A stretch of 64,000 nucleotides of DNA from an uncultured Candidatus Sumerlaeota bacterium (lineage in GTDB: Bacteria; Sumerlaeota; Sumerlaeia; SLMS01; JAHLLQ01), in the NCBI GenBank assembly GCA_964580585.1, contig CAZOKZ010000013.1, forward strand, positions 52-64,051, written 5' to 3'. This document shows, piece by piece, positions 1 through 51,599 of this stretch. The notes under the pieces were generated by a model that did not search any database, was not told where the DNA came from, and saw only the letters and a program-made list of their open reading frames with translations. The position numbers were made by a program, and so were the translations under genes. Positions within the stretch are counted from its first letter, which is position 1; every line of letters begins with the position of its first letter.

Positions 1-3000
1 ATGGTGGCAATGCCGGGATCGAACGCGCTCGAAATCGAAAACCGCGTCACGCGACCAATGGAAAAATTGCTCTATGAAATTCCCGGTGTCGAATATGTGT
101 ATTCCACGTCGCAGGAAGGCCAAAGTCTGGCCATCGTGCGTTTTTACGTTGGCGAGGACATCGAGGATTCCATCGTCAAGCTGAACCAGAAGTTGCAAAC
201 CAACTTCGACCGCATTCCGCACGGTGTTTCGGCGCCGCTCGTTAAGCCGCGTTCCATCGACGATGTGCCGATTCTGGCCGTCACGTTTCACAGCGACGCG
301 TACGATCACTACACGTTGCGGCAACTCGCCGTGCAGGTGCACGAAAGCATCGCGCAAGTCAAAGACGTGGCCGAAACGCAAATCATTGGCGGTGCGCATC
401 GCCAGGTGCGCGTGCTGCTCGATCCCTCGAAACTCGCCGCGCGCAACCTGAGCGTTGCGGGCATCGTGCCGATGCTCCAGCAGGCTAATCGCCAACTGGT
501 TTCCGGTGGCGTGACGACGGACGACCAGGAAGTGCTCGTCGAAACGGGCGCCTTTTTGCGCGACGAACAAGACGTGGCGAACGTTGTGGTTGGCGTGTTC
601 AACGGACGACCCGTGTACCTGCGCGATGTGGCTACCGTAACCGACGGGCCGGAAGAACCCACGCAATACGTCCTGTTTGGCCAAGGCGCGGCGACCGCGT
701 CCCTTGCGCACGAACAACCTGCCGTGACAATCACCGTTGCCAAGCGCCCCGGCACCAACGCCGTGGTGGTGGCCGACCGTGTGCTGGAAAAAAGCGAGAC
801 GTTACGGGGACGGAGCATTCCCTCCGATGTCGAAATGACCATCACACGTCATTATGGACGCACCGCAGCGGAAAAATCCGACGAACTGTTGCTGCACATG
901 GGCATTGCGGTGCTCAGCGTCGCGATCCTGATCATGCTGATGCTCGGTTGGCGTGAGGCAGGCATCGTTGCGCTGGCGATTCCCTCGACGCTTGCGCTGA
1001 CGTTGCTCACGTTTTACCTGACGGGCTACACGTTGAACCGTATCACGTTGTTCGCGTTGATTTTCTCGATCGGTATTCTTGTCGATGATGCGATCGTGGT
1101 TGTGGAGAACATTGTGCGGCACTATCATCTGCCGCATCATCGTGGGCGTTCCATGGCGAGTATGGCGATCGAGGCCGTTGCCGAAGTGGGCAACCCGACA
1201 GTGCTCGCGACGTGGGCTGTCATCGCAGCCATCGCGCCGATGGCCTTTGTTGGCGGGTTGATGGGGCCTTACATGCGTCCGATCCCCGTCGGCGCCAGCG
1301 CCGCGATGTTCTTCTCGCTCGTCATTGCGTTCATTGTTACGCCATGGGCCGCGATCCGGTTGCTCAAAGATAACAACGGCAATGTGCCCGGCGAGATCGA
1401 CGAATCGACTCCGTCCCCCCACGCGAACATCGAACACGACGAAGATTTTTTCACACGCCTTTATCGTCGAATCATGGGTCCGATTATTCATCATCCCCTC
1501 GTGCGTTGGTTGTTTCTGATTTCCATCACCGCGTTGTTTGGCGCGGCATGTTATTTGGTCGTCAACGGCGCAGTGAAAGTTAAAATGCTGCCCTTCGACA
1601 ACAAGAACGAATTCCAGATTATCCTCAATATGCCCGAGGGCAGTTCGCTCGAACGCACCACGCAAGCCGCGCGCGAAATCGCCGCCGCCGTGCGTGTTGA
1701 ACCCGAAGTCACGGACTACCAGGTTTACGCGGGAACCGCAGCGCCGTTTAATTTCAATGGCCTCGTGCGCCACTATTATATGCGGCAAGGTGCGCATGTC
1801 GCCGATTTGCAAATCAACTTGCTTGGCAAGCACGAACGCGTTGCACAGAGCCACGCTATCGCGTTGCGAGTCCGTCCCCGCGTGGCGAAAATTGCCGAAA
1901 AATACGGCGCGCGTGTTGCCGTTGCCGAAGTCCCTCCTGGCCCGCCTGTACTGCAAACGCTCGTCGCGGAAATTTACGGACCCACGCCCGAAGCCCGCAT
2001 GGCGCTCGCCGAAAAAGTGCGCGATATCTTCCGCAATACCGAAGGCGTCGTTGACATCGATTGGTACGTCGAAGCCGACCAGCCCAAAACGCGTTTCGTG
2101 ATCGACAAAGAAAAAGCCGCGCTGCACGGCATCAGCGCCTCGACCATTTCGCAAACGTTGCAAATCGCCGTCGCGGGGCAATCCATCGACCTTGTGCATA
2201 TGCCGCAACAACGCGAGGACGTGAACCTTGTGCTGGAAATGCCGCGCGAATTGCGCAACTCGCCCGAAGAACTGCTCGCCCTGCGCGTGCGGTCTGGCGA
2301 TGCGAACGCATTGCCGGAACCAGGACCCGTCTCCGTCCCTCCGCTCGTGCCGATGCGCGAACTCGTGCATCTCGAACGCGGCATTGCGGACAAAAGCATC
2401 TACCACAAAAACCTGATGCCGGTAACGTATGTTACTGCTGATGTGGCGGGCACTATTGAAAGTCCCGTTTACGCGATTCAACAAATCAACCACGAGTTTG
2501 CAAAATTGCGCGCCGCCGATTTCGGAGGGACGGAGGGCAACGTTGGGCTTTACAACCTCTTCATGCCGTTCACCGATCAGCAACCCGCCATCAAGTGGGA
2601 TGGCGAGTGGCAGATCACGCTCGAAGTATTCCGTGATCTTGGCATCGCGTTTGTCGCCGCGTTGATCCTGATTTACGTGCTCATGGTCGGGTGGTTTCGT
2701 TCGTTCGTCGTGCCGCTTGTCGTTATGGCCGCGATCCCGTTTTCGCTCGTCGGAATTTTGCCTGCGCACGCGGCGATGGGTGCGTTTTTCAGCGCCACGT
2801 CGATGATCGGTTTCATGGCGGGAGCGGGCATTGTCGTGCGCAATTCGATCATCCTCGTCGATTTCATCGAGTTGCGCCGCCGCGAAGGCATGCCGCTTGC
2901 CGAAGCCGTCATCGACGCGGGCGCCGTGCGTTTCCGGCCCATGCTGCTGACCGCGCTGGCCGTCGTCGTAGGCGCCGCCGTGATTTTATTCGACCCGATT

Positions 3001-3111
3001 TTCCAAGGCCTCGCGCTCTCGCTTATGGCGGGCGAAGTCGCCTCGCTGCTCATCAGCCGCATGGCCGTGCCGGTGCTGTACTCGATGGTGGGGACGGTGG
3101 AAAAACAATAA
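1..3111 (+). CDS. RND efflux transporter permease (AcrB/CzcA family), 5' partial
   Basis: 1036-aa ORF running in from the window edge. Twelve-TM architecture with two large periplasmic loops; typical HAE/HME-RND sequence (GxxxD, '[11 protein letters not shown]' TM4 motif). Stop TAA at 3109-3111. Confidence 0.85.
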
Positions 3112-3184
3112 CCGCGAAGCCACCAAGGCGCGAAGGAAGGCGAAGACAAAGTTCTTTGCGAATCTTTGCGTCTTTGCGGTGAAG
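3112..3184. repeat. structured octamer-arm repeat family, degenerate copy
   Basis: CGCGAAGGAAGGCGAAGACAAAG ... TTCTTTGCGAATCTTTGCGTCTTTGCGGTGAAG. Shares the CTTTGYGAATCTTTGCG linker with the copy at 4441. Confidence 0.5.
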
Positions 3185-3265
3185 TATTTATTTCTCTCTC
3201 GAAGCAACAACTCTTGCCGCCTCGGCGTTTACAAATGAAGACTCTTTTCTGGCCGAGGCCGCACG

Positions 3266-4264
3266 ATGTCCCTTTACTTGCTCGAGAAACCCGCCATGTC
3301 GCCCATTACGGTTCATGAAGCTACTTCCCGCTACGACGACGGCGTGCGCGCGCTCTTTCGCGCTGCGCATGTGCCGATTGATGGCGCGTTTTGGGCGCGG
3401 GCGTTTTCGCCCGATAACCCCGGCGGCACGGCCAGCCAACCGCTCGTTGCCGTGGACGAAGAAACCGGCGCGGTCGAAGGTTTTTTGTGCGCGCGACCGA
3501 TCAAACTTCATTTCGAGGGCGAGTTTGTCGATGCGCAGGTGCTGCACGATTTTGTTCTGCGTTCGGGTCCTGCCGATTTGGGGTCGGCGGGACATGCGAT
3601 GATTCGCGAAGCGCTCACTCGGGCGGAAATGACAATCGTTGCGGGGGCGGGGACGGCACTGACACCTGTGCTCGAGGCCGAAGGGTTTTTGCTCGCCGGT
3701 TTTTTTTCGCGCATGCGATTCGATCCCGTCGATGGCGATTCTGCGCGACCCGACATGACGTTGCCGTTTGTATTTTCACGCGCCGACGATTTTCCTCCAG
3801 CGCTCGAAAAACTCAACCAGGCGCATCTGACTGAAAAACGCATCTTTCGGATGCGCGATTTTTCTCAACGCACCTGGCTCTTTGCGGGACCTGCGCCGGA
3901 GTTTGAAATCCTGATCGCCGCGGAAGACAGTCCGATCGATGCTTACGTGGTGTTGCGCACCGTGACGGGGCGGTTTGGTCCGGAACTCCATGTCGTCGAT
4001 TTTGCGTGTCCGATTCATGCCGCCAAACGCCTGTCGCTCGCGTTGCGAGAACTAGCTCACGAACGCCAGCAAACGCTCTACGTCAGTTTTTTCGGCCGTG
4101 CCTGGAACGATGTCTTTATGAGCGCAGGTTTTCAACTCTTGCGCGCGCGATGGGCGCTGCAATTTCAGATGCGCGATCCCCGGCAACGCGCCATTTCCGG
4201 TGCGCTGATGCGTTCCGAGTCCTGGTTCTTCACGCCCGCAGACGGGGAAATCGATCACTGGTAA
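3266..4264 (+). CDS. hypothetical protein (possible acyl-CoA N-acyltransferase-like fold)
   Basis: 332-aa ORF, ATG at 3266 with GAGG 8 nt upstream; high-GC codon usage. Followed by a rho-independent terminator at 4369-4403. No motif I can name confidently. Confidence 0.5.
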   Translation: MSLYLLEKPAMSPITVHEATSRYDDGVRALFRAAHVPIDGAFWARAFSPDNPGGTASQPLVAVDEETGAVEGFLCARPIKLHFEGEFVDAQVLHDFVLRSGPADLGSAGHAMIREALTRAEMTIVAGAGTALTPVLEAEGFLLAGFFSRMRFDPVDGDSARPDMTLPFVFSRADDFPPALEKLNQAHLTEKRIFRMRDFSQRTWLFAGPAPEFEILIAAEDSPIDAYVVLRTVTGRFGPELHVVDFACPIHAAKRLSLALRELAHERQQTLYVSFFGRAWNDVFMSAGFQLLRARWALQFQMRDPRQRAISGALMRSESWFFTPADGEIDHW

Positions 4265-8484: not shown

Positions 8485-8632
8485 TCACTCTATCCGTACC
8501 CAATGTGTTGAGTTCGCCCTGCCAGTCTGTGTGCGCAAGGTGGAAATTCCCGATTTCACCTTGCGGGAACGGATCATTCGTGACGCAATGAATCAGGTTT
8601 TCCACACCATTTCCATCTATTGAGTTGGTCCG

Positions 8633-10147
8633 ATGCTCGAACAGATCGATCCCAAGCTGAAAATCGAAAAAGAGCATTACCTTCAGGCATTGCCCAGTCT
8701 GAAAACCGGGTTGCGTGAATTGCAGCAGCGCGCCCGCGAAGCAGGAATTCCAATTATCATTCTGCTGGAAGGTTGGGATACCTCGGGCAAAGGCGACGCC
8801 ATCCAACATGTGACAGAAGTTCTCGATCCTCGTGGGTTTGAAGTGCATTATATCGCACTTCCCACGGAGGAGGAACTCGCTTTTCCATGGTTGCGGCGTT
8901 TCTGGGTTCGTTTGCCGCACAGAGGTCAGTTCGGAATTTTCGAGCGATCCTGGTACACACGCGTTCTCCAACGGCGTGTCGAGGGTCAGGTATCCACGCG
9001 CGATTGGAAACGAGCTTACCGTGAAATCAACGAAACCGAGCGTCAACTGACCGACGACGGGGCGTTGATCATCAAATTCTGGCTGCATATCTCGGAAAAA
9101 GAACAGCGTAAACGTTTGAAAGCCGCAGAGCGAAACCCTTTCCGCCGATTTACCGTCACAAGCGAGGAGTGGCGTCGTCACGCCCATTACAAGGACTACT
9201 TCCATGCCGCCGACGAAATGATCCGGCGCACTTCAACACCACAGGCGCCGTGGATTGTGATCGAAGCGGGAAGCAAACGGTTCCGCCGATTGAAAGTTTT
9301 GCAGGAAATCAGCCGTACGGTGACCGAACGGCTGGAAATCTACGAGGAGCAACAACGTCTGGAGCCACGCGAACCTCGGAAAAATGGCTCGTCTGACAAC
9401 GGAAACGGGGCCAACGCCCAATCGCCACTCGGCAGCGTGGACTTAACACTTTCGCTCGACCGTGAAACGTACCGCCAGCGAATGAAGGACGGCCAGGTGC
9501 GCTTGTCCCAGCTTCAACAACGCGCCCACCACAAAGGCGTTCCCATGGCGATTGTTTACGAAGGCTGGGACGCGGCGGGCAAAGGCGGCAATATTCGTCG
9601 AATGCTGGCAACCCTCGATCCGCGCGGCTATCGCGTGATTCCCATTGGCAAACCCACCGCCGAAGAACTGGCGCACCACTATCTCTGGCGGTTCTGGAAA
9701 CACGCCCCCCATGCGGGGAACATTATGATATTCGACCGCTCGTGGTACGGGCGAGTATTGGTCGAACGCATCGAAGGGTTTTGCACCGAGCGAGAGTGGC
9801 GTCGCGCGTTTCAGGAAATTCGCGAATTTGAACGACATTGGTTGAATTCCGGAGTCGTTGTCGTCAAATTCTGGCTTCATATTTCGCCCGAGGAACAACT
9901 GCGCCGTTTTACCGCGCGGGCAGAATCCCCCGACAAGAAATGGAAATTGACAGACGAAGACTGGCGAAATCGCGAAAAGTGGAATCGCTACGTGGTTGCC
10001 GTTGACGAAATGATCCGAAAAACATCGACCCAAAAAGCGCCCTGGACCGTAATTCCCGGCAACTGCAAGCTGTGGGCGCGGGTGCAAACGATCGAGACCG
10101 TGTGCGAGGCGTATGAAGCGGCGCTCGCTCGGCACGACAAAAAGTAA
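8633..10147 (+). CDS. ppk2: two-domain polyphosphate kinase 2 (polyphosphate:AMP/nucleotide phosphotransferase type)
   Basis: 504 aa with two tandem PPK2 domains. Each has a Walker-A-like GWDxxGKG (ILLEGWDTSGKGD and VYEGWDAAGKGG) and a lid motif (WLRRFW... / YLWRFW...). Confidence 0.85.
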   Translation: MLEQIDPKLKIEKEHYLQALPSLKTGLRELQQRAREAGIPIIILLEGWDTSGKGDAIQHVTEVLDPRGFEVHYIALPTEEELAFPWLRRFWVRLPHRGQFGIFERSWYTRVLQRRVEGQVSTRDWKRAYREINETERQLTDDGALIIKFWLHISEKEQRKRLKAAERNPFRRFTVTSEEWRRHAHYKDYFHAADEMIRRTSTPQAPWIVIEAGSKRFRRLKVLQEISRTVTERLEIYEEQQRLEPREPRKNGSSDNGNGANAQSPLGSVDLTLSLDRETYRQRMKDGQVRLSQLQQRAHHKGVPMAIVYEGWDAAGKGGNIRRMLATLDPRGYRVIPIGKPTAEELAHHYLWRFWKHAPHAGNIMIFDRSWYGRVLVERIEGFCTEREWRRAFQEIREFERHWLNSGVVVVKFWLHISPEEQLRRFTARAESPDKKWKLTDEDWRNREKWNRYVVAVDEMIRKTSTQKAPWTVIPGNCKLWARVQTIETVCEAYEAALARHDKK

Positions 10148-15967: not shown

Positions 15968-15978
15968 GCAAGGATGAA

Positions 15979-16256
15979 GGGGCGTATCTTGAGTTTGTTA
16001 CCAAAACGATAAAAAAAGCAAACCACGAAGGCACGAAGACACAAAGAAAACACGAAGGGGCTGTTTGCCTGCTTGCAATTTTCTCGCTCTTCGATGGCGA
16101 GCGAGCGAAAAAATCCGTCAAAAAATGGCGATTTCAATTTTTGAAAAGGCCTTGATGGAAAATCAATGAATACAATTTTTTCTTCGTGTTCCTTTGTGAC
16201 CTTCGTGCCTTCGTGGTGAATCTTTTAATAATTGGCAACAAAGTTGAGATGCGCCC
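15979..16256. repeat. MITE-like member of the repeat family (long copy, CACGAAGG flavour)
   Basis: Homologous to 14874-14998 at both ends (GGGGCGTATCTTGAGTTTGTTACCAAAACGA... / ...GTGGTGAATCTTTTAATAATTGGCAACAAAGTTGAGATGCGCCC). Arms AACCACGAAGGCACGAAGACACAAAG / CTTTGTGACCTTCGTGCCTTCGTGGTG. ~120-nt loop with an internal hairpin. Confidence 0.7.
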
Positions 16257-16329
16257 AGGAAGAGAGATAAATAATAGGTAATCTTGACCGAGTTTATCCC
16301 TCAGCTTTTTCATCCCTCATCCTTTGAAT

Positions 16330-16932
16330 TTACTCCTCTTCATCTTCCTGAAACGCGTCGCTTCCCGATTGCGAAAGAATCAGGTCGCCGAAGGACAACG
16401 TGCCGTTAGTCGGATCGTATAATACGGTCAGACCAAACGTGTGTGTGTTGTCCGGGCCGGCGCTGGTGATTTTCCATGTGCTGTATCCAAAATGCGCCCG
16501 CCAGATTTCCGTCATCGCCACATCGTTCGGGATATCGTTCCAGTAGGAAGTCGAATAATCGAACGTGTGCTTTCCATTGCTCAGAAAATGCGTGTGTCCG
16601 GGCCGTGTTGGGTTTTGCAGCCCGGGGTATTGAAACGGGTCCACCGGCAGCGAGGTGATGTAGGCCACGGGCGTGGTGACCTGGCTGAGGGAGTTGACCC
16701 ATCCCCAGTACGTAAATCCGGGCTCGCCATCGAATGGCGGACGTCCGTTGTCGGTGGCATAAGACTCGATGGCATTTGCCAGAGCTTTCATATCGGCGCG
16801 AGCCCGGCTGACTTTCGAGCGCGCTTGCGCTTCCAGCATATTCGGCACCGCGATGGCCGATAGAATTCCGATCACTGCAACCACCACCATCAATTCAATC
16901 AGGGTAAATCCGTATTTTTCAGTTATTTTCAT
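16330..16932 (-). CDS. prepilin-type N-terminal cleavage/methylation domain protein (pseudopilin-like)
   Basis: N-terminal 'GFTLIELMVVVAVIGIL' class III signal / N-methylation motif. 200 aa. Confidence 0.8.
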   Translation of the reverse strand: MKITEKYGFTLIELMVVVAVIGILSAIAVPNMLEAQARSKVSRARADMKALANAIESYATDNGRPPFDGEPGFTYWGWVNSLSQVTTPVAYITSLPVDPFQYPGLQNPTRPGHTHFLSNGKHTFDYSTSYWNDIPNDVAMTEIWRAHFGYSTWKITSAGPDNTHTFGLTVLYDPTNGTLSFGDLILSQSGSDAFQEDEEE

Positions 16933-16982
16933 GGAGCTGCTCTCCTGGATGTTTCGTCAATTGTTCAATAGATAAGTAGAGG

Positions 16983-18458
16983 TCACTTCATTTCGGAGAT
17001 TCTACGGTGTAGCGCTTTTCTGAACAGTTCCTGTTCGGCGGCGTCTGGGGGAGTTATTCCGTAGCGATCGGCCATGGCCACGATATCGGTGGCGACATCC
17101 GACGAACGTTTTTCGCCGCGGCGGAAAGCCGAGATTACTTCCTCGGCGCTTTGTTTTAATTCGGGGGAAGACATCATTTGATAGTAAATGTGAATGCCCG
17201 TATCGACTTGCGTTGCGTGGATGTACTCGATTTTATCGCTTAACTCGGGTTCGTAATGAACAACTTCCATGCTTTTATCAAACGGCTCGTCCTGAGCGAC
17301 AAAGGTGTTTCCGTTTCGGTCGGTCATACAAAGAAGAACGCTCTTTCCGTCGGGCACAGGCTTAATAACGATTTCTTCCATGTCGAACAAGACATCGTTG
17401 ATAGAGCTGAAATCCAAAGCGACTGCCGATCCAAATTCCAGAGTGAATTGATTGCGTGTTTGAGGTGTGATTTTGAACTCATGGAAGTTCGCTGGAGGAA
17501 TATCCGCTAGGAATTGTTCTCGCGAGATTTTGTTTTCAACTCGCTGGCCCACGTTCGGCATGGATGCCGTAGCGTTGGCTTTCGAATGATTGTACATCAC
17601 GCCTCCGCCCACGGCGGCGGCCACGATAACCGTGGCAGCGACGATTTTTGTTGTTCCCATAATGCTGGCTCCCGCGGTCAGTGTGCCGCTGATGGATTGC
17701 AGCAAACCTGCCAGGGAAAACGACCCCGCCGCCACATCCGCCCCTGTTTTCACGGTCGCCGTTTTGGCCGCCGCCGTCACCAGGGCTGCTTTGGCCTCGG
17801 GCGTCAGGAGCATGACCCCTGCCACGACCGCTGCCGACTGGCGAGCCAAACGCGGGGTTGAACGCTGGGGTCGGAGCGACACCCTGACGGCGTCTTCCAC
17901 GTCTTCGCGCATGGCTTCAATGGCCTTGTCGATCTGACGTCCCACGTTGGACGGATGCAGCCCAACACGATTGGCGATCTCCTTCTTGCTCATCCCTTCC
18001 TGAAAGTGCATCAGCACCAGTTCGCGCTGCAGGGGGGTGAGCTTCCAAAGAGCCTCGCGCATCAAGCCTTTCTCTTGTTCGTCCATGATCGCGTCTCGCA
18101 CGTCCGGTTGAGATGGGTCGGGCACGGTGTCGGTATGATCGCCGAATGGCACCATCTGGATCAGGCTCGAACGCGTGATTCCGCGCCGTTGCCAATCGGT
18201 TGCCAGATTCCGTGTCATCCGCGAGACCCAGGCCATGTACCGTCCGCCGTCCTTGAGCGCTTTCAGGTTCAAGTACGTGCGCAGGAAGACTTCCTGCGTC
18301 AGGTCCTCGGCGGCTTCGACCTCTCGCAGGCGCGAGAGTGCAATCGCATAAACCATCGAATAATGGCGCGCGATCAGTTCGTCGAAAGCCGTCGCGTTGC
18401 CCGATTGGGCTTCGCGAACCAGGACGGCGTCGGTTTTGGCATGAGTCGGAGCAAGCAT
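16983..18458 (-). CDS. ECF sigma-70 family factor fused to transmembrane/periplasmic C-terminal extension (sigma/anti-sigma-like single chain)
   Basis: N-terminal sigma region 2 (DLTQEVFLRTY) and region 4 (SKKEIANRVGLHPSNVGRQI). Hydrophobic Ala/Val-rich TM segment around residues 205-285, then a ~200-aa extracytoplasmic domain. Confidence 0.75.
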   Translation of the reverse strand: MLAPTHAKTDAVLVREAQSGNATAFDELIARHYSMVYAIALSRLREVEAAEDLTQEVFLRTYLNLKALKDGGRYMAWVSRMTRNLATDWQRRGITRSSLIQMVPFGDHTDTVPDPSQPDVRDAIMDEQEKGLMREALWKLTPLQRELVLMHFQEGMSKKEIANRVGLHPSNVGRQIDKAIEAMREDVEDAVRVSLRPQRSTPRLARQSAAVVAGVMLLTPEAKAALVTAAAKTATVKTGADVAAGSFSLAGLLQSISGTLTAGASIMGTTKIVAATVIVAAAVGGGVMYNHSKANATASMPNVGQRVENKISREQFLADIPPANFHEFKITPQTRNQFTLEFGSAVALDFSSINDVLFDMEEIVIKPVPDGKSVLLCMTDRNGNTFVAQDEPFDKSMEVVHYEPELSDKIEYIHATQVDTGIHIYYQMMSSPELKQSAEEVISAFRRGEKRSSDVATDIVAMADRYGITPPDAAEQELFRKALHRRISEMK

Positions 18459-18675
18459 CCGCGTGTTCCCTTTTCAGTTTGCCGTGGCGCTCATTGCGCC
18501 ATTCATTAACACAAGACGCGGGGAGGTGGGGTTAATTGCGCGCGCAGTGTAATTTTTTTCACCTCGATATTTTATTGTGTATCAAACAGGGTGCTCAATC
18601 GAGCCAAATTGCCTGGAATTCTGTTGGACGCCGCCGGTTGTATAGCAGTAAATAATGTGGAGTAAGTTATCGCTC

Positions 18676-18691
18676 CCAATACGCGTATTGG
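18676..18691. promoter_or_regulatory. perfect 16-bp palindrome CCAATACGCGTATTGG, candidate operator
   Basis: Exact inverted repeat, 34 nt upstream of the ATG at 18725, inside the probable promoter of the low-GC ATPase/DUF4276 cassette. Confidence 0.4.
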
Positions 18692-18724
18692 ATTTTCCGG
18701 AACGGAAATCAAGGAATAACGACG

Positions 18725-19885
18725 ATGGAAAACGACCGTTTGACGCGATTTAGTAGCCTTAAAATAAAAGGTTTCCGGCGGCTAAACGATTTGGAACTCG
18801 ATCTGCGTCCATTTACCGTATTGATTGGGGCGAATGGTGTTGGGAAAACCAGTCTTTTGGATGCATGGACTCTTCTGGCTCGGTCTGCAAAAGGAGAGTT
18901 ATCTCAAACGATTTCGGAAATGCATGGTTTGACAGCGATGCGTTCGGGTGGTGTGGCGGAACGTATATCATTTCAAATCTCTATGCTAATTGAGAAAAAA
19001 AAACCAATCCTTTACGATCTAAATTTGGCGCCAGAAGGAACAGGTTATGTGATTGAAAGAGAAGATTTGCATGAATATCAGGATTCTACTCCCTTTAGCC
19101 TTCTCACGTCATACCTTCATTATGTTTATTACTCAGACCCCAAAACACAACAATTGACTGAAGCTGATTGGGAGACCAAAGCTGGCCAGACAGCTCTTTC
19201 CCAAGTGCCCCCCATGTATAAAGAGCCAGAGCGATTTCGAAAAGCTCTGGCATCTTCCACATTTTATCATACACTGGATGTTGGTCCGCGTTCTCCCGTT
19301 CGTCTTCCCCAGCAAATGCATCCAGCCGAATTACCAGGCGCGAATGGAGAGGATCTCGTTTCTTGTTTATTCTATCTGCGCGAGACCGATAGCGAACGAT
19401 TTGAGGCGGTGGAGGATGCCTTGCGAGCGGGATTTCCCGGATTCGAACGCTTAGAATTTCCTCCCGTTGCGGCGGGTACACTCGCGCTCGCTTGGCGCGA
19501 CCGAAATTTTTCGCGCCCCATGTACATGCATCAGCTCTCTGAGGGAACATTGAGATTCTTGTGGTTGGTAACGTTGCTTCAGTCACCTGGATTGACCGAG
19601 GTAACGCTGATCGACGAACCTGAGGTGAGCTTACACCCCGAGCTTCTCAACCTCTTAGTTCATTTATTTCGCGAAGCGAGCCAGCGAACCCAGATCATTG
19701 TCGCTACCCACGCCGACCGGTTTGTTCGATTTCTCAAGCCTGAAGAAGTCGTGATTATGGATATTAATGAAGAAGGCTATTCGACCGCTACATGGGGAGA
19801 CGATCTTGATTTGGATCGATGGCTTTCCGATTATACGCTCGATGAGTTATGGGGAATGGGCGAAATGGGGGGGCGATCACGGTGA
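18725..19885 (+). CDS. ABC/AAA_21-type ATPase (OLD/RecF-like P-loop NTPase)
   Basis: Walker A GANGVGKTS, signature-like LSEGTLRF, Walker B LIDEPEVSLHP, and an H-loop IIVATHA. AAGGAA RBS. GC content (~45%) is markedly lower than the flanks (~60%). Confidence 0.75.
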   Translation: MENDRLTRFSSLKIKGFRRLNDLELDLRPFTVLIGANGVGKTSLLDAWTLLARSAKGELSQTISEMHGLTAMRSGGVAERISFQISMLIEKKKPILYDLNLAPEGTGYVIEREDLHEYQDSTPFSLLTSYLHYVYYSDPKTQQLTEADWETKAGQTALSQVPPMYKEPERFRKALASSTFYHTLDVGPRSPVRLPQQMHPAELPGANGEDLVSCLFYLRETDSERFEAVEDALRAGFPGFERLEFPPVAAGTLALAWRDRNFSRPMYMHQLSEGTLRFLWLVTLLQSPGLTEVTLIDEPEVSLHPELLNLLVHLFREASQRTQIIVATHADRFVRFLKPEEVVIMDINEEGYSTATWGDDLDLDRWLSDYTLDELWGMGEMGGRSR

Positions 19886-20487
19886 AGATTATCATCATGG
19901 TCGAGGGAGAAACCGAAAAAGTGTTTCTTCCATTTTTACGGGGATTCCTACAAAATCGACTGAACAACATGCCCAAACTAAAGCCGAGTGTTTTTGATGG
20001 TGCCGTGCCGACGGGAGCAAAGTTAAAAAGGGCAGTTGAGAATTATTTTTCTGGCAAAGAGCCAGCGGATCACGTCATCTGGCTAACCGATGTTTACCCT
20101 GGGAAAGGCATTTGGACCACAGCCGAAGAAGCGAAGCAAAAAGCCCGCGAATGGGTTGGTCCAGAAGACAGATTTCATCCTCATGTTGCGCTTCATGATT
20201 TTGAAGCATGGCTTTTACCATATTGGGATCGAATCAAAAAGCTGGCAAAAACAGAACGGACTGCGCCTTCCGGCAAACCGGAATCCGTAAACCACATGAA
20301 ACCACCCGCTTATCACATCAAGGAAGCCTATCACGTAGGCAAATGTCGTAAGGATTACAAGAAGCCCATCGATGCTCCAAAGATTCTAAAAGACCAGGAC
20401 TTAATGATTTCCATCAACGCCTGTCCCGAGTTGAAAGCATTGGTAAATACCATCCTTGAAATTTCAGGTGGGGATAAAATTCTATAA
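19882..20487 (+). CDS. DUF4276-like small protein (putative TOPRIM-like nuclease partner of the ATPase)
   Basis: A GTG start at 19882 overlaps the upstream TGA (GTGA coupling) and has a G-rich RBS. The alternative ATG at 19897 lacks an RBS. Conserved 'IIMVEGETE' N-terminus plus D/E-rich motifs (WLTDVYPG, ALHDFEAWLL). ~201 aa, low GC. The family assignment is from memory, not a search. Confidence 0.6.
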   Translation: MKIIIMVEGETEKVFLPFLRGFLQNRLNNMPKLKPSVFDGAVPTGAKLKRAVENYFSGKEPADHVIWLTDVYPGKGIWTTAEEAKQKAREWVGPEDRFHPHVALHDFEAWLLPYWDRIKKLAKTERTAPSGKPESVNHMKPPAYHIKEAYHVGKCRKDYKKPIDAPKILKDQDLMISINACPELKALVNTILEISGGDKIL

Positions 20488-20738
20488 AACTATTCAGTTT
20501 AGAGAGTGAACGGTCTCAATCCTGCGAAATTCCCTTGGACCTCGCCCGTCGGGGTCGGTAAAAAGAATCTCAGAAACCTAAAACGCTTGCCCATCGTCTG
20601 AAGCTCCGTTCCAAATTTGGCTGGAATCCTGGCCCTTGGTGGGAAAGCATGACGAATACCCTTGATTTGTAACCCGCAGACCCACCGATACAGTTGAACA
20701 CCAGGGGATCTTTTCTCCGCAGAGAGGAAATATCGTTC

Positions 20739-22952
20739 ATGAACGCGATCACCACGAACGAATTAGACGCCCTCGCCGGTGTCGAACACGGCGACCCACA
20801 CCGCATTCTCGGGATTCACCCGGTTGGCGAATCCGCCAAGGCCAAGGAGTTGGCCTTCCGCGCATTTCACCCCGATGCCAGCAATGTCGAACTGCTGATC
20901 GAAGGGGTGTCGAAATCCTACATCATGAGTCGAATCCACGATGGCGGAATTTTCGAAGCCGTGGTGCCGGTCAAGGACCTGCCCAAGCACTATAAGTACC
21001 AGTACAAATTTCATTTTCACGATGGCAATGTGTGGATTCGCCGCGATCCGTATCGGTACCTGCCGACACTGGGCGAAATGGACCTCTATTACGTGGGCGA
21101 AGGCCGCCACTGGCGCCTTTATGAAAAACTCGGCGCCCAGGTTCAAACCATCGACGGCATCAAGGGTGTCAGCTTCGCCGTGTGGGCGCCAAACGCTCGT
21201 CGCGTCAGCGTGATCGGCGATTTTAACCGCTGGGACGGACGCCTTTGCCCGATGCGCCGTATGGGAGCAGCGGGAATCTGGGAAATATTCGTCCCCGGTC
21301 TGGACGAAGGCGAACTCTACAAATTTGAAATCAAGACCGCCCAGGGCCATATCATCACCAAACTCGATCCGTTTGCCTTCTACACGGAAAAACGCCCCAA
21401 AACAGCAGGTGTCGTCTGGAATCGTGGCAAGTACGAATGGGGCGATACCGAGTGGATTGCCAGCCGCAAGAAACGCAATTGGCTGCACGAGCCCGTGGCG
21501 GTTTACGAAGTCCATCTGGGGTCGTGGATGCGCAGTCCGGAAAACCCGGACGAGTTCCTCAGCTACCGCGAGATGGCGCCGATGCTGGTGGCGCACTGCA
21601 AAAAATATAACTTCAACTATGTCGAGTTCATGCCGCTGGCCGAGCACCCTTTTGACGGTTCATGGGGGTATCAGGTCACCGGATATTTTGCTCCGACCAG
21701 TCGATTTGGCAACCCGGACGAATTCAAATTCATGGTCGATGCCCTGCACGAAGCGGGTATCGGCGTGATCGTCGATTGGGTGCCCGCTCACTTTCCGAAA
21801 GACGAACACGGCCTTCGCCAGTTCGACGGCACGGCGCTCTACGAACATGCCGATCCGCGCCAGGGCGAGCACAAGGACTGGGGAACGTTGATCTTTAACT
21901 TTGGCCGCCACGAGGTGTCCAACTTCCTGATTACCAACGCGTTGTATTGGCTGGACGAATATCACATCGACGGTCTGCGCGTGGACGCCGTGGCCTCGAT
22001 GCTGTATCTGGATTACAGCCGCGAAGAAGGCGAATGGATTCCGAACGAATACGGTGGCCGCGAAAATATCGAGGCGATCGAGTTCCTGCGCCGTTTGAAT
22101 GAAGAAGTTCACGGCCAGTTCCCTGGCGCGTTTACGGTGGCGGAGGAATCGACCTCCTTCGCGGGCGTCAGCCGCCCAACCTATGCCGGTGGCCTTGGTT
22201 TCACGTTCAAGTGGAACATGGGTTGGATGAACGACACGCTTTCGTACTTCACGAAAGACCCGATTTACCGCAGCTACCACCACAACGACCTGACGTTCTC
22301 GATGATCTACGCGTACAGCGAGAACTTTGTCCTGCCGATTTCCCACGACGAAGTGGTGCACGGTAAAGGCTCGCTTCTGGGCAAAATGCCCGGCGACGAC
22401 TGGCAGAAATTCGCCAATTATCGCCTGTTTATGAGCTATATGTGGACGCACCCGGGCAAGAAGCTGATCTTCCAGGGCTGCGAATTTGCCCAGGGCCGCG
22501 AATGGAAACACAACCAGAGCCTGGATTGGCACGAATGCGGTCATGAAAGCCGCTTCAAGATCGAAAAACTCATTCAGGATCTCGGCGCGCTCTATCAGAA
22601 CGAAGAGTGCTTGTGGAAATACGACCATGAGCCGCGCGGCTTTACCTGGATCGATTGCAGCGACTGGCAATCGTCAGTGCTCTCGTACATTCGTTGGGGA
22701 GACAACGGCGACCATGTGATCGTGATTTGCAACTTTACGCCCACCACGCGGTATAACTACCGCATTGGCGTGCCGTGGCCGTGTTTCTACAAAGAAATCC
22801 TGAACACGGATTCAGCCATGTATGGCGGCAGCAACAATGGGAACGGTGGCGGCGTTTGGGCCGATCATTGGGCCATGCACAGCCATTATCATTCGGTAAA
22901 CCTGACGCTTCCGCCCCTTTCGGTGTTGGTGCTCAAACCGACGAAAGACTGA
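20739..22952 (+). CDS. glgB: 1,4-alpha-glucan branching enzyme GlgB
   Basis: GH13 catalytic motifs together with N-terminal CBM48. ATG at 20739 (MNAITTNELD...) with GAGAGGAAA RBS; the track ORF extends upstream to 20694. Confidence 0.9.
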   Translation: MNAITTNELDALAGVEHGDPHRILGIHPVGESAKAKELAFRAFHPDASNVELLIEGVSKSYIMSRIHDGGIFEAVVPVKDLPKHYKYQYKFHFHDGNVWIRRDPYRYLPTLGEMDLYYVGEGRHWRLYEKLGAQVQTIDGIKGVSFAVWAPNARRVSVIGDFNRWDGRLCPMRRMGAAGIWEIFVPGLDEGELYKFEIKTAQGHIITKLDPFAFYTEKRPKTAGVVWNRGKYEWGDTEWIASRKKRNWLHEPVAVYEVHLGSWMRSPENPDEFLSYREMAPMLVAHCKKYNFNYVEFMPLAEHPFDGSWGYQVTGYFAPTSRFGNPDEFKFMVDALHEAGIGVIVDWVPAHFPKDEHGLRQFDGTALYEHADPRQGEHKDWGTLIFNFGRHEVSNFLITNALYWLDEYHIDGLRVDAVASMLYLDYSREEGEWIPNEYGGRENIEAIEFLRRLNEEVHGQFPGAFTVAEESTSFAGVSRPTYAGGLGFTFKWNMGWMNDTLSYFTKDPIYRSYHHNDLTFSMIYAYSENFVLPISHDEVVHGKGSLLGKMPGDDWQKFANYRLFMSYMWTHPGKKLIFQGCEFAQGREWKHNQSLDWHECGHESRFKIEKLIQDLGALYQNEECLWKYDHEPRGFTWIDCSDWQSSVLSYIRWGDNGDHVIVICNFTPTTRYNYRIGVPWPCFYKEILNTDSAMYGGSNNGNGGGVWADHWAMHSHYHSVNLTLPPLSVLVLKPTKD

Positions 22953-42421: not shown

Positions 42422-42724
42422 TCACTCAATCCGATACCACTCATCGCTCGCCTCCGACTTCACGTCGTCGAATCCGCCCTTGCACAACGGCTGGCAGCGC
42501 ATGATGCGCCACGCAATCAGCCCCAGCGCTTTCCACGCGGGTTTGGTGCGCAGGGCGTCGAGCGCGTAGTTGCTGCACGTTGGATGAAATCGACATTGGC
42601 CGCCCAGAAACGGCCCGAGGACGATCTGGTAACCGCGAACGAGGGCGATCAACCCTCGGCGGACGAATCGCGAACCGGCGAGGACAATGGCGGAGGGGCG
42701 CTTTCCAGCAGTTTGGCGACGCAC
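42422..42724 (-). CDS. yidD: membrane protein insertion efficiency factor YidD
   Basis: '[36 protein letters not shown]' matches the YidD consensus. The true start is probably internal, since the 5' end overlaps rnpA. Confidence 0.75.
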   Translation of the reverse strand: MRRQTAGKRPSAIVLAGSRFVRRGLIALVRGYQIVLGPFLGGQCRFHPTCSNYALDALRTKPAWKALGLIAWRIMRCQPLCKGGFDDVKSEASDEWYRIE

Positions 42725-43062
42725 GCGCGGAAATCCTCCTCAAGCTGCCGGTACGACGCTCCGGCGGCAGCCACCCGGGCGTTCACCACCAGGTCCAGCC
42801 CCGGCGGGAGAGTCGCGTGCGTCCGGCGGAATATCTCGCGCAGACGTCGTTTGACCCGGTTGCGCGTGACGGCATTGCCCACGCGGCGCGAAACCGTCAA
42901 TCCCAACCGCGTCGGGCGATCCAGTCCGCGGTCCAGGGCATAGACAACAACAAAACGGCGGGCACATTTGCGTCCGCCGTCGTAGACTTTCTGAAATTCC
43001 GCCCGTTGCGTCAACCGCACCCAGCGGGGGAATCGTTCGCCCCGCGGAGTCAGTTCACTCAT
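42649..43062 (-). CDS. rnpA: ribonuclease P protein component
   Basis: Basic 137-aa protein with an RNR motif ([13 protein letters not shown]). Its start ATG overlaps the rpmH stop (ATGA). Confidence 0.85.
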
Positions 43063-43199
43063 CCGGAGACGGTCAAGCGATGGCGGCCCTTCGCGCGGCG
43101 ACGGGCCAGGACTTTACGACCGCTGGCCGATGCCATGCGTGTACGGAAACCGTGTTTGTTCACGCGGCGGCGGCGGCTGGGTTGATAGGTTCTTTTCAT
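43059..43199 (-). CDS. rpmH: 50S ribosomal protein L34
   Basis: Not in the ORF track (under 60 aa). Manual translation of the minus strand gives [46 protein letters not shown], canonical L34. GGAAGGTGAG RBS. Confidence 0.9.
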
Positions 43200-43378
43200 G
43201 TGTCTCACCTTCCAGTGTTCTTCAAGGGGGTGAAATTCCGCTCATCCGCCCCCCCCGCGTCAAGAGGGAAAATCGAGCGAGGGTGATTTCTAAGGTGTGG
43301 AATAGGCGAATTAAAAGTGAATATCTGTTGAATAACTTGATCGTGACTAAGTAGAAACAAGTTATGGAGGATGTGCCA

Positions 43379-44650
43379 ATGACCCAATTTCGTTTATACG
43401 CTCCCTTCGCACGTTGTACCAGCGATAGCGTTCTTGATTTTTATGGAGGAGATTTTTTAGAAGCTTTGCTTCTGTACGATCAAGTGTTCTTGGACTCCGC
43501 GCATTATCTGGAGTTTTTTCACTTAGCCAGACGATTTGGTTTAAAATCAGTCCTGGCGCTTCTTGATCAAGGAATTATTATTCCACATCTGGACGATGGG
43601 GCAGCGGGTCAGGTGGGTCAAACTGGACCCGCAAGATTACCTGCAAATAAAGTTATATTGCCCATTCTGCATTTTGAAATAGTGGAATTACTCGTCGTTG
43701 ATTATGAGAAATTTCTGCATCAAACTATTAAAAAGCAAATTGGGTTTAATGCCGCAGAAAAACGTGAGCTTGCTAATATGCTTCGTGGAAAGCAGCATCT
43801 CCGAAATCATGATGCAAGGCGCAAAACGATCGCAAATTGGAAAGAATTAGTCGAGCCAACTTCTGATACTTTTAGGGACGCGTTCTCCAGGTCATTAGAT
43901 TCTCTAGGGCTTCTTGCACCCAGGTATGAACAGATACAAGCTGAAGCGGTTTTCTACAATGAAACCGATTTACGAGTAGAATCAAACATTAGACAGTTGA
44001 TTCCAAATCTTACAATCGAAGAAGAGCATCGTGCAATCGAACGCGCACTTTTAAGTCTGAGAAAATCAGTTCAAGTAAAATGTACTGCGGATGAATTGAA
44101 AAGCATACCAGCTTGGCAAGAAGATTTGGGTCTACTGGGCTTAGAAGATAAAAGAACAAGCCGAAATCCTACATTACTGACTAACCGACTGCATCAAATT
44201 TTAGAGATTCGAGAATTTCCCAAACTCCAAATTTTGTATGATGATCCGGACTTCAAACTTGAAGAGATACTCAAAATTCGTAACACGCGTGAATGCCAAG
44301 AATTTAGGGCCTGCATAAGAAGTTTCGACCGGATTGACCAACAACAATGGTTGATAACTTCCGAAGACTTAAAGCAGAAAGTGTTCGAATTAAAAAGATC
44401 ATTAGTGGGGAAAACTGGATCGCTATTATTCTCTGTAGTTTCCAATCTTATCCCTCCTCTATTCTCGATGCCAATGGCGTTAGGAAACTCTGTTAAAGAG
44501 AATTTTTTTGAAAATCACGAACCTCCGATTCAGGGAGCTAATGCGTTTCTCAATACCAAATTATCAAAGCTTTACAATAAAGATTATGGGGATGAATTGT
44601 CGAAAAAAAGAGGAGGGAAAAACAGTAAGACCATTGATCTGGTCGGATAG
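43379..44650 (+). CDS. hypothetical protein, low-GC (~40%) probable horizontally acquired orphan
   Basis: Start chosen at ATG 43379, which has a GGAGGA RBS 9 nt upstream; the track ORF starts at 43364. 423 aa, no recognisable domain. Base composition is strikingly different from its neighbours. Confidence 0.55.
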   Translation: MTQFRLYAPFARCTSDSVLDFYGGDFLEALLLYDQVFLDSAHYLEFFHLARRFGLKSVLALLDQGIIIPHLDDGAAGQVGQTGPARLPANKVILPILHFEIVELLVVDYEKFLHQTIKKQIGFNAAEKRELANMLRGKQHLRNHDARRKTIANWKELVEPTSDTFRDAFSRSLDSLGLLAPRYEQIQAEAVFYNETDLRVESNIRQLIPNLTIEEEHRAIERALLSLRKSVQVKCTADELKSIPAWQEDLGLLGLEDKRTSRNPTLLTNRLHQILEIREFPKLQILYDDPDFKLEEILKIRNTRECQEFRACIRSFDRIDQQQWLITSEDLKQKVFELKRSLVGKTGSLLFSVVSNLIPPLFSMPMALGNSVKENFFENHEPPIQGANAFLNTKLSKLYNKDYGDELSKKRGGKNSKTIDLVG

Positions 44651-44767
44651 TTTTTTACCAAGCCTGAAAGGCTTCAAATCCTTCGCCTTGGGCAAAACGC
44701 GAAGCGCGTCGCCCTGGGTGGCGTGCGCCGTTTCATCCGCACGCTGAAAGTGTGCGACACATCATTC

Positions 44768-45337
44768 TCACCACCAATCGGTGTAAGGCTCTTTGGTTTC
44801 CCAATCCACGAATTTGCGGATTTCACGGGCGCTGTCGAGCACTTCGACGCGCAGGAAATCCGGCGATTCCGGCTCTGTGGGAAACCAGTCGATATCCACC
44901 AACACGTGGCCTTCGGCGTCGCGGGCGAAAATTCGGGCGATGAGGCCTTCGGTTATTTGAATTTCGTCCAAGATGCGGTCGAAAATGTGACTCAACCCGC
45001 ACAAATCGTCCGGTGCGACTAAATTCCACGTGTCCGGCTCGGCAAGCCCTTCCTGGTCGATGCCATCCTCGGGCAAATAATAGATATCATCCGTCGGCCA
45101 ACCGTTTTCGCGGCACGCCGCGTGGATCATTTCGGTGAAAACTGCTGGATCGGGAGCGGGACGCATGGGGATTTTAGGTTTGTGAGCGGGATTTGGTGCG
45201 GGTTTGGGCGGTTGAACCGTACGCCGAACCCGGGCAATATACCATTTTTGTACCCACACCATGAAAAAGTGGAACGCGATCCCGATGGGAATCAGGTAAA
45301 GCAACTGGTGTGGATTTTTGGCGAATTGTTCGAACAT
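44768..45337 (-). CDS. hypothetical protein with N-terminal TM helix
   Basis: 189 aa, GC ~54%. Confidence 0.45.
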   Translation of the reverse strand: MFEQFAKNPHQLLYLIPIGIAFHFFMVWVQKWYIARVRRTVQPPKPAPNPAHKPKIPMRPAPDPAVFTEMIHAACRENGWPTDDIYYLPEDGIDQEGLAEPDTWNLVAPDDLCGLSHIFDRILDEIQITEGLIARIFARDAEGHVLVDIDWFPTEPESPDFLRVEVLDSAREIRKFVDWETKEPYTDWW

Positions 45338-45384
45338 GTTGCGTGACCAATGGGAGTATTTCGTGGGCGAAATCCCTCGAACTT

Positions 45385-45795: not shown

Positions 45796-45918
45796 TTTTT
45801 GTTTCCCCAGTCCAAGCGCGATTGACTTTTATCCCCGACTTTTATCGTTTATAGGGTTGCCGCATGCAATCGCAAGTCGTATAAGTACAGTGTTAGTATT
45901 CTCTTGGGACGGAAGTCG

Positions 45919-46287: not shown

Positions 46288-46291
46288 TTCG

Positions 46292-50147: not shown

Positions 50148-51599
<1,452 letters not shown>

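Follow-up and report, generated by a model that had tools for sequence, protein, structure and literature searches.

Gene pairs encoding an AAA_21 ATPase and a DUF4276 protein, here called HEC-01-type pairs, are among the more abundant candidate defense systems of environmental bacteria. We know of no solved structure, no established trigger, and no established substrate for such a pair. The pairing itself has already been catalogued and tested, both as HEC-01 and as the Mad3/Mad4 components of MADS. HEC-01 (Hma-embedded candidate 01) was defined by Payne et al. (10.1101/2024.01.29.577857), who also noted a metal-binding site in common with BpOLD, and whose one tested representative left E. 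coli unprotected from every phage in the assay (10.1101/2024.01.29.577857). With an HEC-01 representative from a cold seep, E. coli B was protected from one or more of the phages T4, T5, and T7 (PMC12881386). The two published phage tests disagree, and neither tested representative is necessarily of the clade to which the cassette described here belongs. In Pseudomonas aeruginosa, MADS likewise contains an AAA_15/21-type ATPase (Mad3) followed by a DUF4276 protein (Mad4), and this pair is needed for MADS defense (10.1101/2023.03.30.534895); MADS3-4 has been counted among the ABC ATPase+TOPRIM systems (PMC11464382), and DUF4276 has been placed in the Toprim superfamily (PMC12065111).

Two Overlapping Genes of the HEC-01 Type

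Within the window, which is the whole 64,000-nucleotide stretch of DNA that was analyzed, two plus-strand ORFs follow the HEC-01 scheme, in which an ABC ATPase, HEC-01A, is paired with a TOPRIM-like partner, HEC-01B. ORF A (positions 18725 to 19885; 386 aa) encodes an ABC-type, SMC/Rad50-head-like ATPase of the HEC-01A type, and ORF B (19882 to 20487; 201 aa, GTG start) encodes a DUF4276 protein of the HEC-01B type, in line with the positions and lengths given in a preliminary description of this DNA. The GTGA overlap reported there was confirmed at 19882 to 19885 on the plus strand, the GTG opening gene B and the TGA closing gene A. Direct reading of the plus strand places a G-run (GGGGGGG, 19867 to 19873) in the 3′ end of gene A, 8 nt before the gene B GTG, which is likely to be the ribosome-binding site for coupled translation of gene B; when gene junctions were compared, related loci had GGGAGG- or GGGGG-type sequences at the equivalent position. 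A putative Shine-Dalgarno-like AAGGAA (18711 to 18716, plus strand) lies 8 to 9 nt ahead of the gene A ATG at 18725. A public protein collection gives gene B as a 212-aa form starting at ATG 19849, but aligned homologs begin at the position equivalent to the window GTG, and the product is therefore taken to be 201 aa.

Profile searches with Pfam and PADLOC, among the checks that the preliminary description had proposed, identified both proteins. ORF A matched AAA_21 (4.8e-35) and AAA_15 well above the curated cut-offs, and its best PADLOC family was HEC-01A (model PDLC04175, 5.2e-66), with residues 7 to 385 aligned to positions 4 to 362 of the 363-position profile. ORF B matched DUF4276 at 2.1e-28 (100.3 bits; cut-off, 30.2), and its best PADLOC family was HEC-01B (model PDLC04188, 1.7e-12) over residues 2 to 193. 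An HEC-01A match is thus directly adjacent to an HEC-01B match, with the genes overlapping by 4 nt, and judged by these profiles the cassette is a new member of the candidate anti-phage system HEC-01 already catalogued in PADLOC, in agreement with the earlier reading of the locus as a candidate defense module of an ATPase and a small, possibly TOPRIM-like protein.

The Encoded ATPase and TOPRIM Protein

The gene A product carries all of the motifs that the preliminary description had listed, each of them invariant in 53 homologs: Walker A GANGVGKTS (18827 to 18853), the signature LSEGT (19535 to 19549), Walker B LIDEPE (19607 to 19624), and the H-loop ATH (19703 to 19711), all encoded on the plus strand. 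Together with the Q-loop, the D-loop, and the ABC head fold, these place it in the SMC/Rad50/RecF clade of ABC ATPases, and it is a coiled-coil-less, SMC/Rad50-head-like ABC ATPase.

The predicted structure of the gene B product consists of a TOPRIM core (approximately residues 1 to 122, nucleotides 19882 to 20247, plus strand) and a helical C-terminal region, and its nearest structural relative is a class 2 OLD nuclease. The DUF4276- and TOPRIM-like character first read from its N terminus and acidic motifs was supported by profile and model alike. Homolog alignment identified as invariant E8-x3-E12, D70, D106-x-E108, and K161, and these are the candidate catalytic residues, encoded on the plus strand at 19903 to 19905 (E8), 19915 to 19917 (E12), 20089 to 20091 (D70), 20197 to 20199 (D106), 20203 to 20205 (E108), and 20362 to 20364 (K161). 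In the model, E8, D70, and D106/E108 sit at the ends of strands β1, β3, and β4. The order is that of BpOLD E400-x3-E404, D455xD457, T506-x-E508, and K562, and mutagenesis has assigned E400, E404, D455, D457, T506, E508, and K562 of BpOLD to a two-metal site (PMC6755086). The DxD expected after β3 is replaced by D-x-Y: the sequence reads L-T-D70-V-Y72, which retains only the first Asp, and both D70 and Y72 are unchanged throughout 50 homologs. The other catalytic feature of the TOPRIM superfamily examined in this protein is present. Since D-V-Y with an invariant Y72 takes the place of DxD, the metal A site differs from that of OLD, and D106/E108 after β4 may compensate for the missing second Asp.

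Differences from Other ATPase–TOPRIM Systems

MADS shares the gene order of the cassette and differs from it in its remaining genes. The PADLOC mad3 model aligns end to end with the window ATPase (2.8e-22), but the match to NCBIfam MAD3 stays at 87 bits, below the cut-off of 420, and the mad4 model gave no match to the small protein at E ≤ 1. MAD6, MAD7, and MAD8 are mandatory in the model of the MADS authors (10.1101/2023.03.30.534895); the neighbors of the window cassette are not MAD6 to MAD8, and no mad1, mad2, or mad5 to mad8 lies near it.

Of the systems with which the preliminary description had compared the cassette, membership in PARIS or Gabija did not hold, and membership in AbiL is doubtful. 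PARIS combines the ABC ATPase AriA with AriB, a DUF4435 TOPRIM protein of ∼300 aa ("class 4 OLD"), whereas the window effector is a DUF4276 protein of 201 aa without an AriB or DUF4435 match at E ≤ 1; the AriA model matches the window ATPase at 1.7e-30, far more weakly than HEC-01A does. PARIS is reported to be often virus-borne, whereas the window clade was not found on phage, satellite, or plasmid DNA in the viral-contig, PHROG, and plasmid collections searched. In class 2 OLD proteins and Gabija GajA (e.g., BpOLD, PDB 6NK8), ATPase and TOPRIM are fused and have a UvrD-like helicase partner (GajB), whereas the window genes are split, with no helicase gene within 5 kb. The GajA model (1.1e-17) covers ATPase motifs only, and assignment to OLD classes 1 to 3 is countered both by the separate ORFs and by an OLD-like_TOPRIM match of only 12.6 bits (E = 0.21; cut-off, 23.2 bits). 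AbiL also joins an ATPase (AbiLi) to a small TOPRIM-superfamily protein, the RloB-like AbiLii; AbiLi matched at 4.9e-23, AbiLii at only E = 0.0037 over a short stretch, and there was no Pfam RloB match. Septu and retron-associated PtuA have the HNH nuclease PtuB as partner rather than a TOPRIM protein, and neither a reverse transcriptase nor an msr-msd RNA is present at the window cassette, which has no Rfam match.

Foreign Composition of the Cassette

The two genes and both intergenic spacers form a low-GC segment (18460 to 20738) bounded by a native-looking ECF-type sigma gene (16983 to 18458, minus strand) and glgB (20739 to 22952). GC content over 18460 to 20740 is 47.2%, against 54 to 55% in the flanks; the cassette itself is at 47.0% compared with 54.9% for the window, a difference of ∼8 points that places it within the lowest 2% of equal-size stretches. 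The preliminary description was right about the direction of the difference but overstated its size, giving 45% against 60% where we measured 47% against 55%. GC3 is 44% in the cassette, 65% in the ECF sigma gene, and 71% in glgB. The best genome match of the window GlgB (73% identity) is in a Candidatus Sumerlaeia metagenome-assembled genome, and in the nearest relative found the cassette is missing from the interval that separates glgB from the response-regulator gene. This absence upstream of glgB and the atypical GC3 bear out the foreign origin first suggested, and the cassette is horizontally acquired and compositionally foreign. Cassette GC is likewise below that of the flanks at 34 of 51 related loci.

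An SMC-like ABC ATPase with a TOPRIM partner could also be a housekeeping DNA-repair or recombination pair, like RecF with RecR, or like SbcC/SbcD. The low GC3, the absence of the cassette from the syntenic site in the nearest relative, the variable context described below, and a distribution unlike that of a core gene make this highly improbable, as do the match to NCBIfam RecF of only 37 bits (cut-off, 172) and the best family matches, which are to defense models.

A perfect 16-bp palindrome (CCAATACGCGTATTGG, 18676 to 18691) lies 34 nt ahead of the gene A ATG, in the position first reported, but its proposed role as an operator was rejected. First-order Markov simulations predict ∼1.6 perfect palindromes of at least 16 bp per 64 kb and two were observed, so that its occurrence is at chance level at the scale of the window, where it has no second copy even with three mismatches allowed. 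Neither the palindrome nor an 8-nt-arm repeat was detected upstream of 64 related cassettes, several of which have an upstream spacer of <25 bp. A scan of the upstream spacer for sigma-70-type promoters was negative on the plus strand, with the caveat that the lineage may not follow this consensus. The palindrome is probably incidental. An extension of this judgment to the whole segment, with low GC and palindrome as chance or annotation artifacts and the ORFs as nonfunctional, is almost certainly wrong, and for the genes it is refuted: both match curated families far above thresholds, have thousands of homologs, keep all family-invariant residues, and yield confident structure models.

Pairing, Neighbors, and Distribution of Related Cassettes

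Pairing and coupling of the two genes are obligate among relatives. The ATPase gene is directly upstream of gene B at all 68 related loci with room for one, and a 4-nt NTGA overlap joins the genes at 77 of 80 (ATGA at 55, GTGA at 15, TTGA at 6, and CTGA at 1). The divergence of A is correlated with that of B (Mantel r 0.80, reached by 0 of 2,000 permutations). Relatives occur in many phyla at 55 to 75% identity; >2,200 clusters at 90% identity match gene B, whereas profile searching of representatives clustered at 50% identity yielded only 760, of which 99 had E ≤ 1e-30.

The wider neighbors of the window cassette encode a response regulator, a pseudopilin, the ECF sigma factor, GlgB, and RNase Y. 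No tRNA was detected in a tRNA search around the cassette and no integrase-like gene within ∼5 kb, which agrees with the housekeeping setting first described. Neighbors are unrelated from locus to locus, and clustering of 369 flanking ORFs gave no conserved third gene, barring BREX pglX and pglZ in a minority. An ECF sigma gene adjoins the cassette in the window and at two related loci (L085 and L086), but phmmer found this at only ∼4 of 80 loci, and the adjacency is treated as coincidence. Approximately 90% of related loci, the window included, lie among housekeeping genes and not in defense islands, the cassette often being wedged between them with spacers of 9 to 25 bp. HEC-01 was originally found embedded in Hma, whereas the window copy is solitary between the ECF sigma gene and glgB, and the embedding seen at related loci is in BREX: pglX directly precedes the cassette at 7 of the 85 loci of the clade, and pglZ directly follows it at 3.

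This embedding raises the alternative that the pair works only as the restriction or effector arm of BREX, MADS, or Hma, the window copy being an orphan that is inert or partly functional. Mad3 and Mad4 do act within the eight-gene MADS, where deletion of the mad5 methyltransferase is tolerated only with deletion of mad2 or mad3 (10.1101/2023.03.30.534895), and the occurrence of HEC-01 within Hma systems (10.1101/2024.01.29.577857), like that of the cassette among BREX genes at 7 of 85 loci, points the same way. We nevertheless consider dependence on a larger system unlikely, because the ∼90% of loci that are solitary keep both ORFs intact, together with the overlap and every invariant residue, which speaks for a function that is autonomous and maintained by selection. 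The window also has no methyltransferase, PglZ, or helicase gene within 5 kb of the cassette, the neighbors scanned with PADLOC gave no match, and the "embedded" systems of Payne et al. were autonomous in tests (10.1101/2024.01.29.577857).

No carrier of the clade was detected among viruses in an IMG/VR scan or among plasmids by tblastn against 72,556 of them, and PHROGs contain no family for gene B. No convincing direct repeats flank the window cassette; the repeats that bracket it, such as an 11-nt CTTTTCAGTTT/CTATTCAGTTT pair, are short and at chance level. Related cassettes are not bordered by conserved terminal DNA motifs, by target-site duplications, or by inverted repeats; their upstream and downstream sequences, compared across 65 to 81 loci, have no k-mers in common, hairpins are not enriched downstream, and no pair of an empty and a filled site was obtained. 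One alternative is a selfish element, of the addiction type or self-spreading, that makes no net contribution to defense. With the nuclease as toxin or homing activity and the ATPase as controller, it would account for insertion at tight intergenic spots without an integrase. The spread over many phyla, the >2,200 clusters set against only 760 matches among 50%-identity representatives, the short spacers, the lack of any integrase, tRNA, plasmid, or phage carrier detected, and the Pfam description of AAA_21 as a putative AbiEii toxin are all consistent with such an element. It is quite unlikely given the absence of conserved termini, duplications, inverted repeats, and empty/filled-site pairs, an architecture that fits sensor–effector defense systems, the BREX embedding of some loci, and the phage protection given by one HEC-01 (PMC12881386).

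Proposed Mechanism and Implications

The segment is probably a self-contained HEC-01-type module of two genes that arrived by horizontal transfer, with a mechanism proposed by analogy with PARIS AriA/AriB, OLD, and Gabija. On this analogy, the ATPase of the window copy would form a complex with the nuclease and hold it silent, sense a sign of infection, for instance a phage protein or aberrant nucleic acid, and free or activate the nuclease on ATP binding or hydrolysis. The nuclease would then cleave nucleic acid, either DNA or tRNA, with a two-metal mechanism, in which we tentatively assign E8/D70 to metal A and E12/D106/E108 to metal B and take K161 for the lysine of the helical domain; phage replication would be halted, perhaps at the expense of the cell. 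In favor of the explanation are the family matches, the folds, the conserved catalytic-type residues in the BpOLD order, the pairing and coupling of the genes, and the foreign composition, and a link to defense is supported by the BREX embedding of some loci, the cold-seep representative (PMC12881386), and the requirement for Mad3/Mad4 in MADS (10.1101/2023.03.30.534895). Several observations count against this explanation: D-V-Y in place of the TOPRIM DxD, the housekeeping setting of ∼90% of loci, the inactivity of one HEC-01 representative in E. coli (10.1101/2024.01.29.577857), and the lack of relatives in the viral and plasmid collections searched, unlike PARIS and OLD.

A more speculative possibility, which we regard as very unlikely, is that the clade is not primarily devoted to phage defense but is a self-propagating cassette, which inserts or maintains itself in a homing- or addiction-like manner by means of a TOPRIM nuclease under ATPase control. 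The observations behind it are the high conservation of the clade, its presence in many phyla, the almost always solitary position among housekeeping genes, in some cases with <25 bp of spacer on a flank, the failure to detect phage or plasmid carriers, and the absence of an adjoining integrase. If true, a self-propagating two-gene cassette would represent a new mode of gene mobility.

As an HEC-01-type module, the window cassette leaves existing knowledge of these systems unaltered; it is a clean, solitary, and intact example from a poorly studied lineage. The comparative data define testable traits of such modules, namely the obligate 4-nt coupling, a class 2 OLD-like catalytic layout with D-x-Y instead of DxD, and an occasional position between BREX pglX and pglZ, and a further trait for testing is that the viral-contig, PHROG, and plasmid collections searched contain no relatives.

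Identity of the two-gene cassette

The cassette consists of two plus-strand genes, ORF A (18725-19885), read as an ATPase of 386 aa, and ORF B (19882-20487), encoding a DUF4276 protein of 201 aa. In Pfam, ORF A matches AAA_21 (4.8e-35) and AAA_15 (3.7e-21) and ORF B matches DUF4276 (2.1e-28), with OLD-like_TOPRIM at E = 0.21 covering the β1-Glu motif only. Among PADLOC models, ORF A matches HEC-01A end to end (5.2e-66) and ORF B matches HEC-01B (1.7e-12), and the gene pair is therefore assigned to HEC-01 (Hma-embedded candidate 01), a PADLOC candidate anti-phage system. Much weaker PADLOC matches were obtained for ORF A with AriA (1.7e-30), AbiLi (4.9e-23), and mad3 (2.8e-22), and also with PtuA, GajA, and Old, and for ORF B with AbiLii (0.0037). 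The NCBIfam MAD3 model gave 87 bits for ORF A against a cut-off of 420, and no NCBIfam match was found for ORF B. Judged from these profile matches, the cassette is a HEC-01 member of an already catalogued kind, related to Mad3/Mad4 of MADS; it is neither PARIS nor Gabija, and probably not AbiL either. The preliminary description, which proposed an AAA_21-type ATPase with a DUF4276-like partner as a candidate defence module, is confirmed in its observation and supported in its main interpretation, with HEC-01 as the family; membership of PARIS or Gabija did not hold, and that of AbiL is unlikely.

Payne et al. described HEC-01 as a pair of proteins, one an ABC ATPase and the other a TOPRIM protein, encoded within Hma systems; the single representative assayed in E. 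coli gave no defence (10.1101/2024.01.29.577857). Protection of E. coli B by a HEC-01 representative from a cold-seep study has been reported for at least one of the phages T4, T5, and T7 (PMC12881386). In MADS, defence depends on Mad3, an ATPase, together with Mad4, a DUF4276 protein (10.1101/2023.03.30.534895); ABC ATPase plus TOPRIM systems include MADS3-4 and AbiL (PMC11464382), and DUF4276 itself has been placed in the Toprim superfamily (PMC12065111).

Gene starts and conserved motifs

Two starts are available to ORF B, ATG 19849 (212 aa) and GTG 19882 (201 aa). We chose the GTG because the equivalent residue is the first residue in most of 50 aligned homologues and a G-run (19867-19873) lies 8 nt 5′ of it; this start produces the GTGA start/stop overlap with ORF A noted from the sequence alone. 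The public protein record is the 212-aa form, with the extra stretch 19849-19881, and homologue alignment indicates that this annotated start probably precedes the true one by 11 codons. All four ATPase motifs quoted in the preliminary description, Walker A GANGVGKTS, signature LSEGT, Walker B LIDEPE, and H-loop ATH, occur in ORF A and show little or no variation among 53 homologues. That the cassette might be a RecF/RecR-like repair pair, or an artefact, was also considered.

The confident AlphaFold model of the ORF B protein (pLDDT 91.4, pTM 0.88) places a helical C-terminal region after four β-α units, with the family-invariant residues at strand ends, in keeping with the TOPRIM-like core suggested previously. 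These residues occur in the same order as the metal-site residues of the class 2 OLD nuclease BpOLD (PDB 6NK8), which bind two Mg ions and are required for processive cleavage (PMC6755086); a metal site common to HEC-01 and BpOLD has been reported (10.1101/2024.01.29.577857). E8 and E12 would correspond to BpOLD E400 and E404, D70 to D455, D106 and E108 to T506 and E508, and K161 to K562, a putative correspondence drawn from order, spacing, and secondary structure. The sole clear departure is at the BpOLD DxD motif, which is D-V-Y in ORF B, where the invariant Y72 would take the place of the second Asp, D457.

Abundance and coupling of the two genes

Homologs of gene B comprise more than 2,200 cluster representatives at 90% identity (~55-69% identity), from sources including Desulfobacterota, Chloroflexota, Nitrospirota, Cyanobacteria, Acidobacteriota, and Cloacimonadota, and those of gene A more than 3,600. 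When 1.84 billion representatives clustered at 50% identity were searched with a profile, only 760 matched, 99 of them at E ≤ 1e-30. By these sequence counts the clade is abundant yet tightly conserved. We compared 85 related loci (80 metagenome contigs and five annotated contigs). Coupling is obligate: the ATPase gene lies directly upstream of gene B on the same strand in all 68 loci with enough sequence, and in 77 of 80 junctions the two genes share an NTGA overlap of 4 nt. Pairwise divergences of A and B are correlated (Mantel r 0.80, a value reached by 0 of 2000 permutations), showing that the genes travel as one unit, a correlation that linkage alone would equal.

Composition, neighbours, and probable foreign origin

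Cassette GC is 47.0%, within the lowest 2% of equal-sized windows, compared with 54.9% for the whole window and 54-55% for the flanks; the direction of the previously claimed GC contrast was right and its size overstated. GC3 is 44%, against 65% in the ECF-type sigma gene (16983-18458, minus strand) and 71% in glgB (20739-22952). Both had been named as housekeeping neighbours, correctly, and pseudopilin, response-regulator, and RNase Y genes are also among the neighbours. As also described, integrase and tRNA genes are lacking: no integrase-like gene occurs within ~5 kb of the cassette, and neither a tRNA gene nor an Rfam family at gathering score was found anywhere in the 64 kb. Across related loci, cassette GC is below that of the flanks in 34 of 51 (mean difference 4.4 points).

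GlgB comparison pointed to a Candidatus Sumerlaeia MAG as the closest genome found (73% amino-acid identity). On its contig L005, 158 bp separate glgB from the orthologous response-regulator gene upstream (compared region 1052-4221), whereas in the window the distance between the two is 4.77 kb (15968-20738) and takes in the cassette as well as the pseudopilin and ECF sigma genes; the L005 pseudopilin homologue lies elsewhere, at 8508-9032. The cassette is also absent near glgB in a second Sumerlaeia contig. Its absence near glgB in the relative, together with the GC3 contrast, supports horizontal acquisition, as judged against one fairly distant relative and an inserted stretch larger than the cassette.

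The divergently transcribed sigma gene encodes sigma-70 regions 2 and 4 (residues 13-185) and a long C-terminal extension (~300 aa) that matches nothing in Pfam. An ECF sigma gene neighbours the cassette here and at two further loci, and was rejected as a general conserved neighbour. The lowest-GC stretch of the window (~43.5%) is 42850-45400, which may be a second foreign island; its ORFs (42580-43185 and 43364-44650, 428 aa, on the plus strand; 44768-45337, 45385-45795, and 45829-46431 on the minus strand) have no match in Pfam or PADLOC.

Upstream palindrome and bracketing repeat

The perfect 16-bp palindrome CCAATACGCGTATTGG (18676-18691), 34 nt before the ATPase ATG, had been proposed as an autoregulatory operator. 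Simulating the window with a first-order Markov model gave a mean of 1.6 perfect palindromes of at least 16 bp, with at least one in 81% of simulations, and two are observed, the other being CGTCGGCGCGCCGACG (50919-50934). No second copy of CCAATACGCGTATTGG occurs in the window with up to three mismatches allowed, and neither the palindrome nor an 8-nt-arm inverted repeat was found in the 150 nt upstream of any of 64 related cassettes. The upstream region of the closest homologous locus is unrelated to that of the window, and in several loci the ATPase start follows the gene before it by a spacer of just 9-25 bp. Given the chance-level count, single copy, absence from related cassettes, and short spacers, the operator role was rejected as unsupported; the palindrome is probably incidental and could conceivably be a host-specific site. 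An 11-nt near-repeat, CTTTTCAGTTT/CTATTCAGTTT (18470-18480 and 20490-20500), almost exactly brackets the low-GC segment, has no equivalent seen in other loci, and is probably due to chance.

Mobility, BREX embedding, and a possible mechanism

The cassette is mobile. Related copies are flanked by unrelated housekeeping genes, for example those encoding acetyltransferases, UDP-glucose dehydrogenase, and ribosomal proteins. One alternative considered is that the cassette is a selfish element of the addiction or homing type. The cassettes showed neither conserved end motifs nor flanking repeats. No relatives were found in IMG/VR or PLSDB plasmids, nor of gene B in PHROGs. An informative exception to the unrelated surroundings is BREX: among the 85 loci, BREX pglX is immediately upstream in seven (L116 4-1683, L111 7656-10196, and five further loci) and pglZ immediately downstream in three. 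In those loci the same ATPase plus DUF4276 clade sits within BREX, not Hma, a setting relevant to the further alternative that the cassette is a sub-module orphaned from a methylation-based system. A second HEC-01A-type ATPase lies within ~4 kb of the cassette in three loci, and HEC-01 variants may cluster; on contig L104 (404-1597) a different, second ATPase of this type (PDLC04178, 1.2e-160) is ~1.5 kb or less away.

For the preferred reading, a HEC-01-type defence cassette, analogy with PARIS, OLD, and Gabija suggests a sensor-effector model covering complex formation, trigger, substrate, and phenotype. Probably assembled into an ATP-engaged dimer or higher oligomer, the ATPase would hold the co-translated TOPRIM nuclease inactive until an infection cue alters the ATPase state. 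The nuclease, freed or activated, would then cleave DNA or tRNA by two-metal catalysis, and phage replication would stop, possibly abortively.
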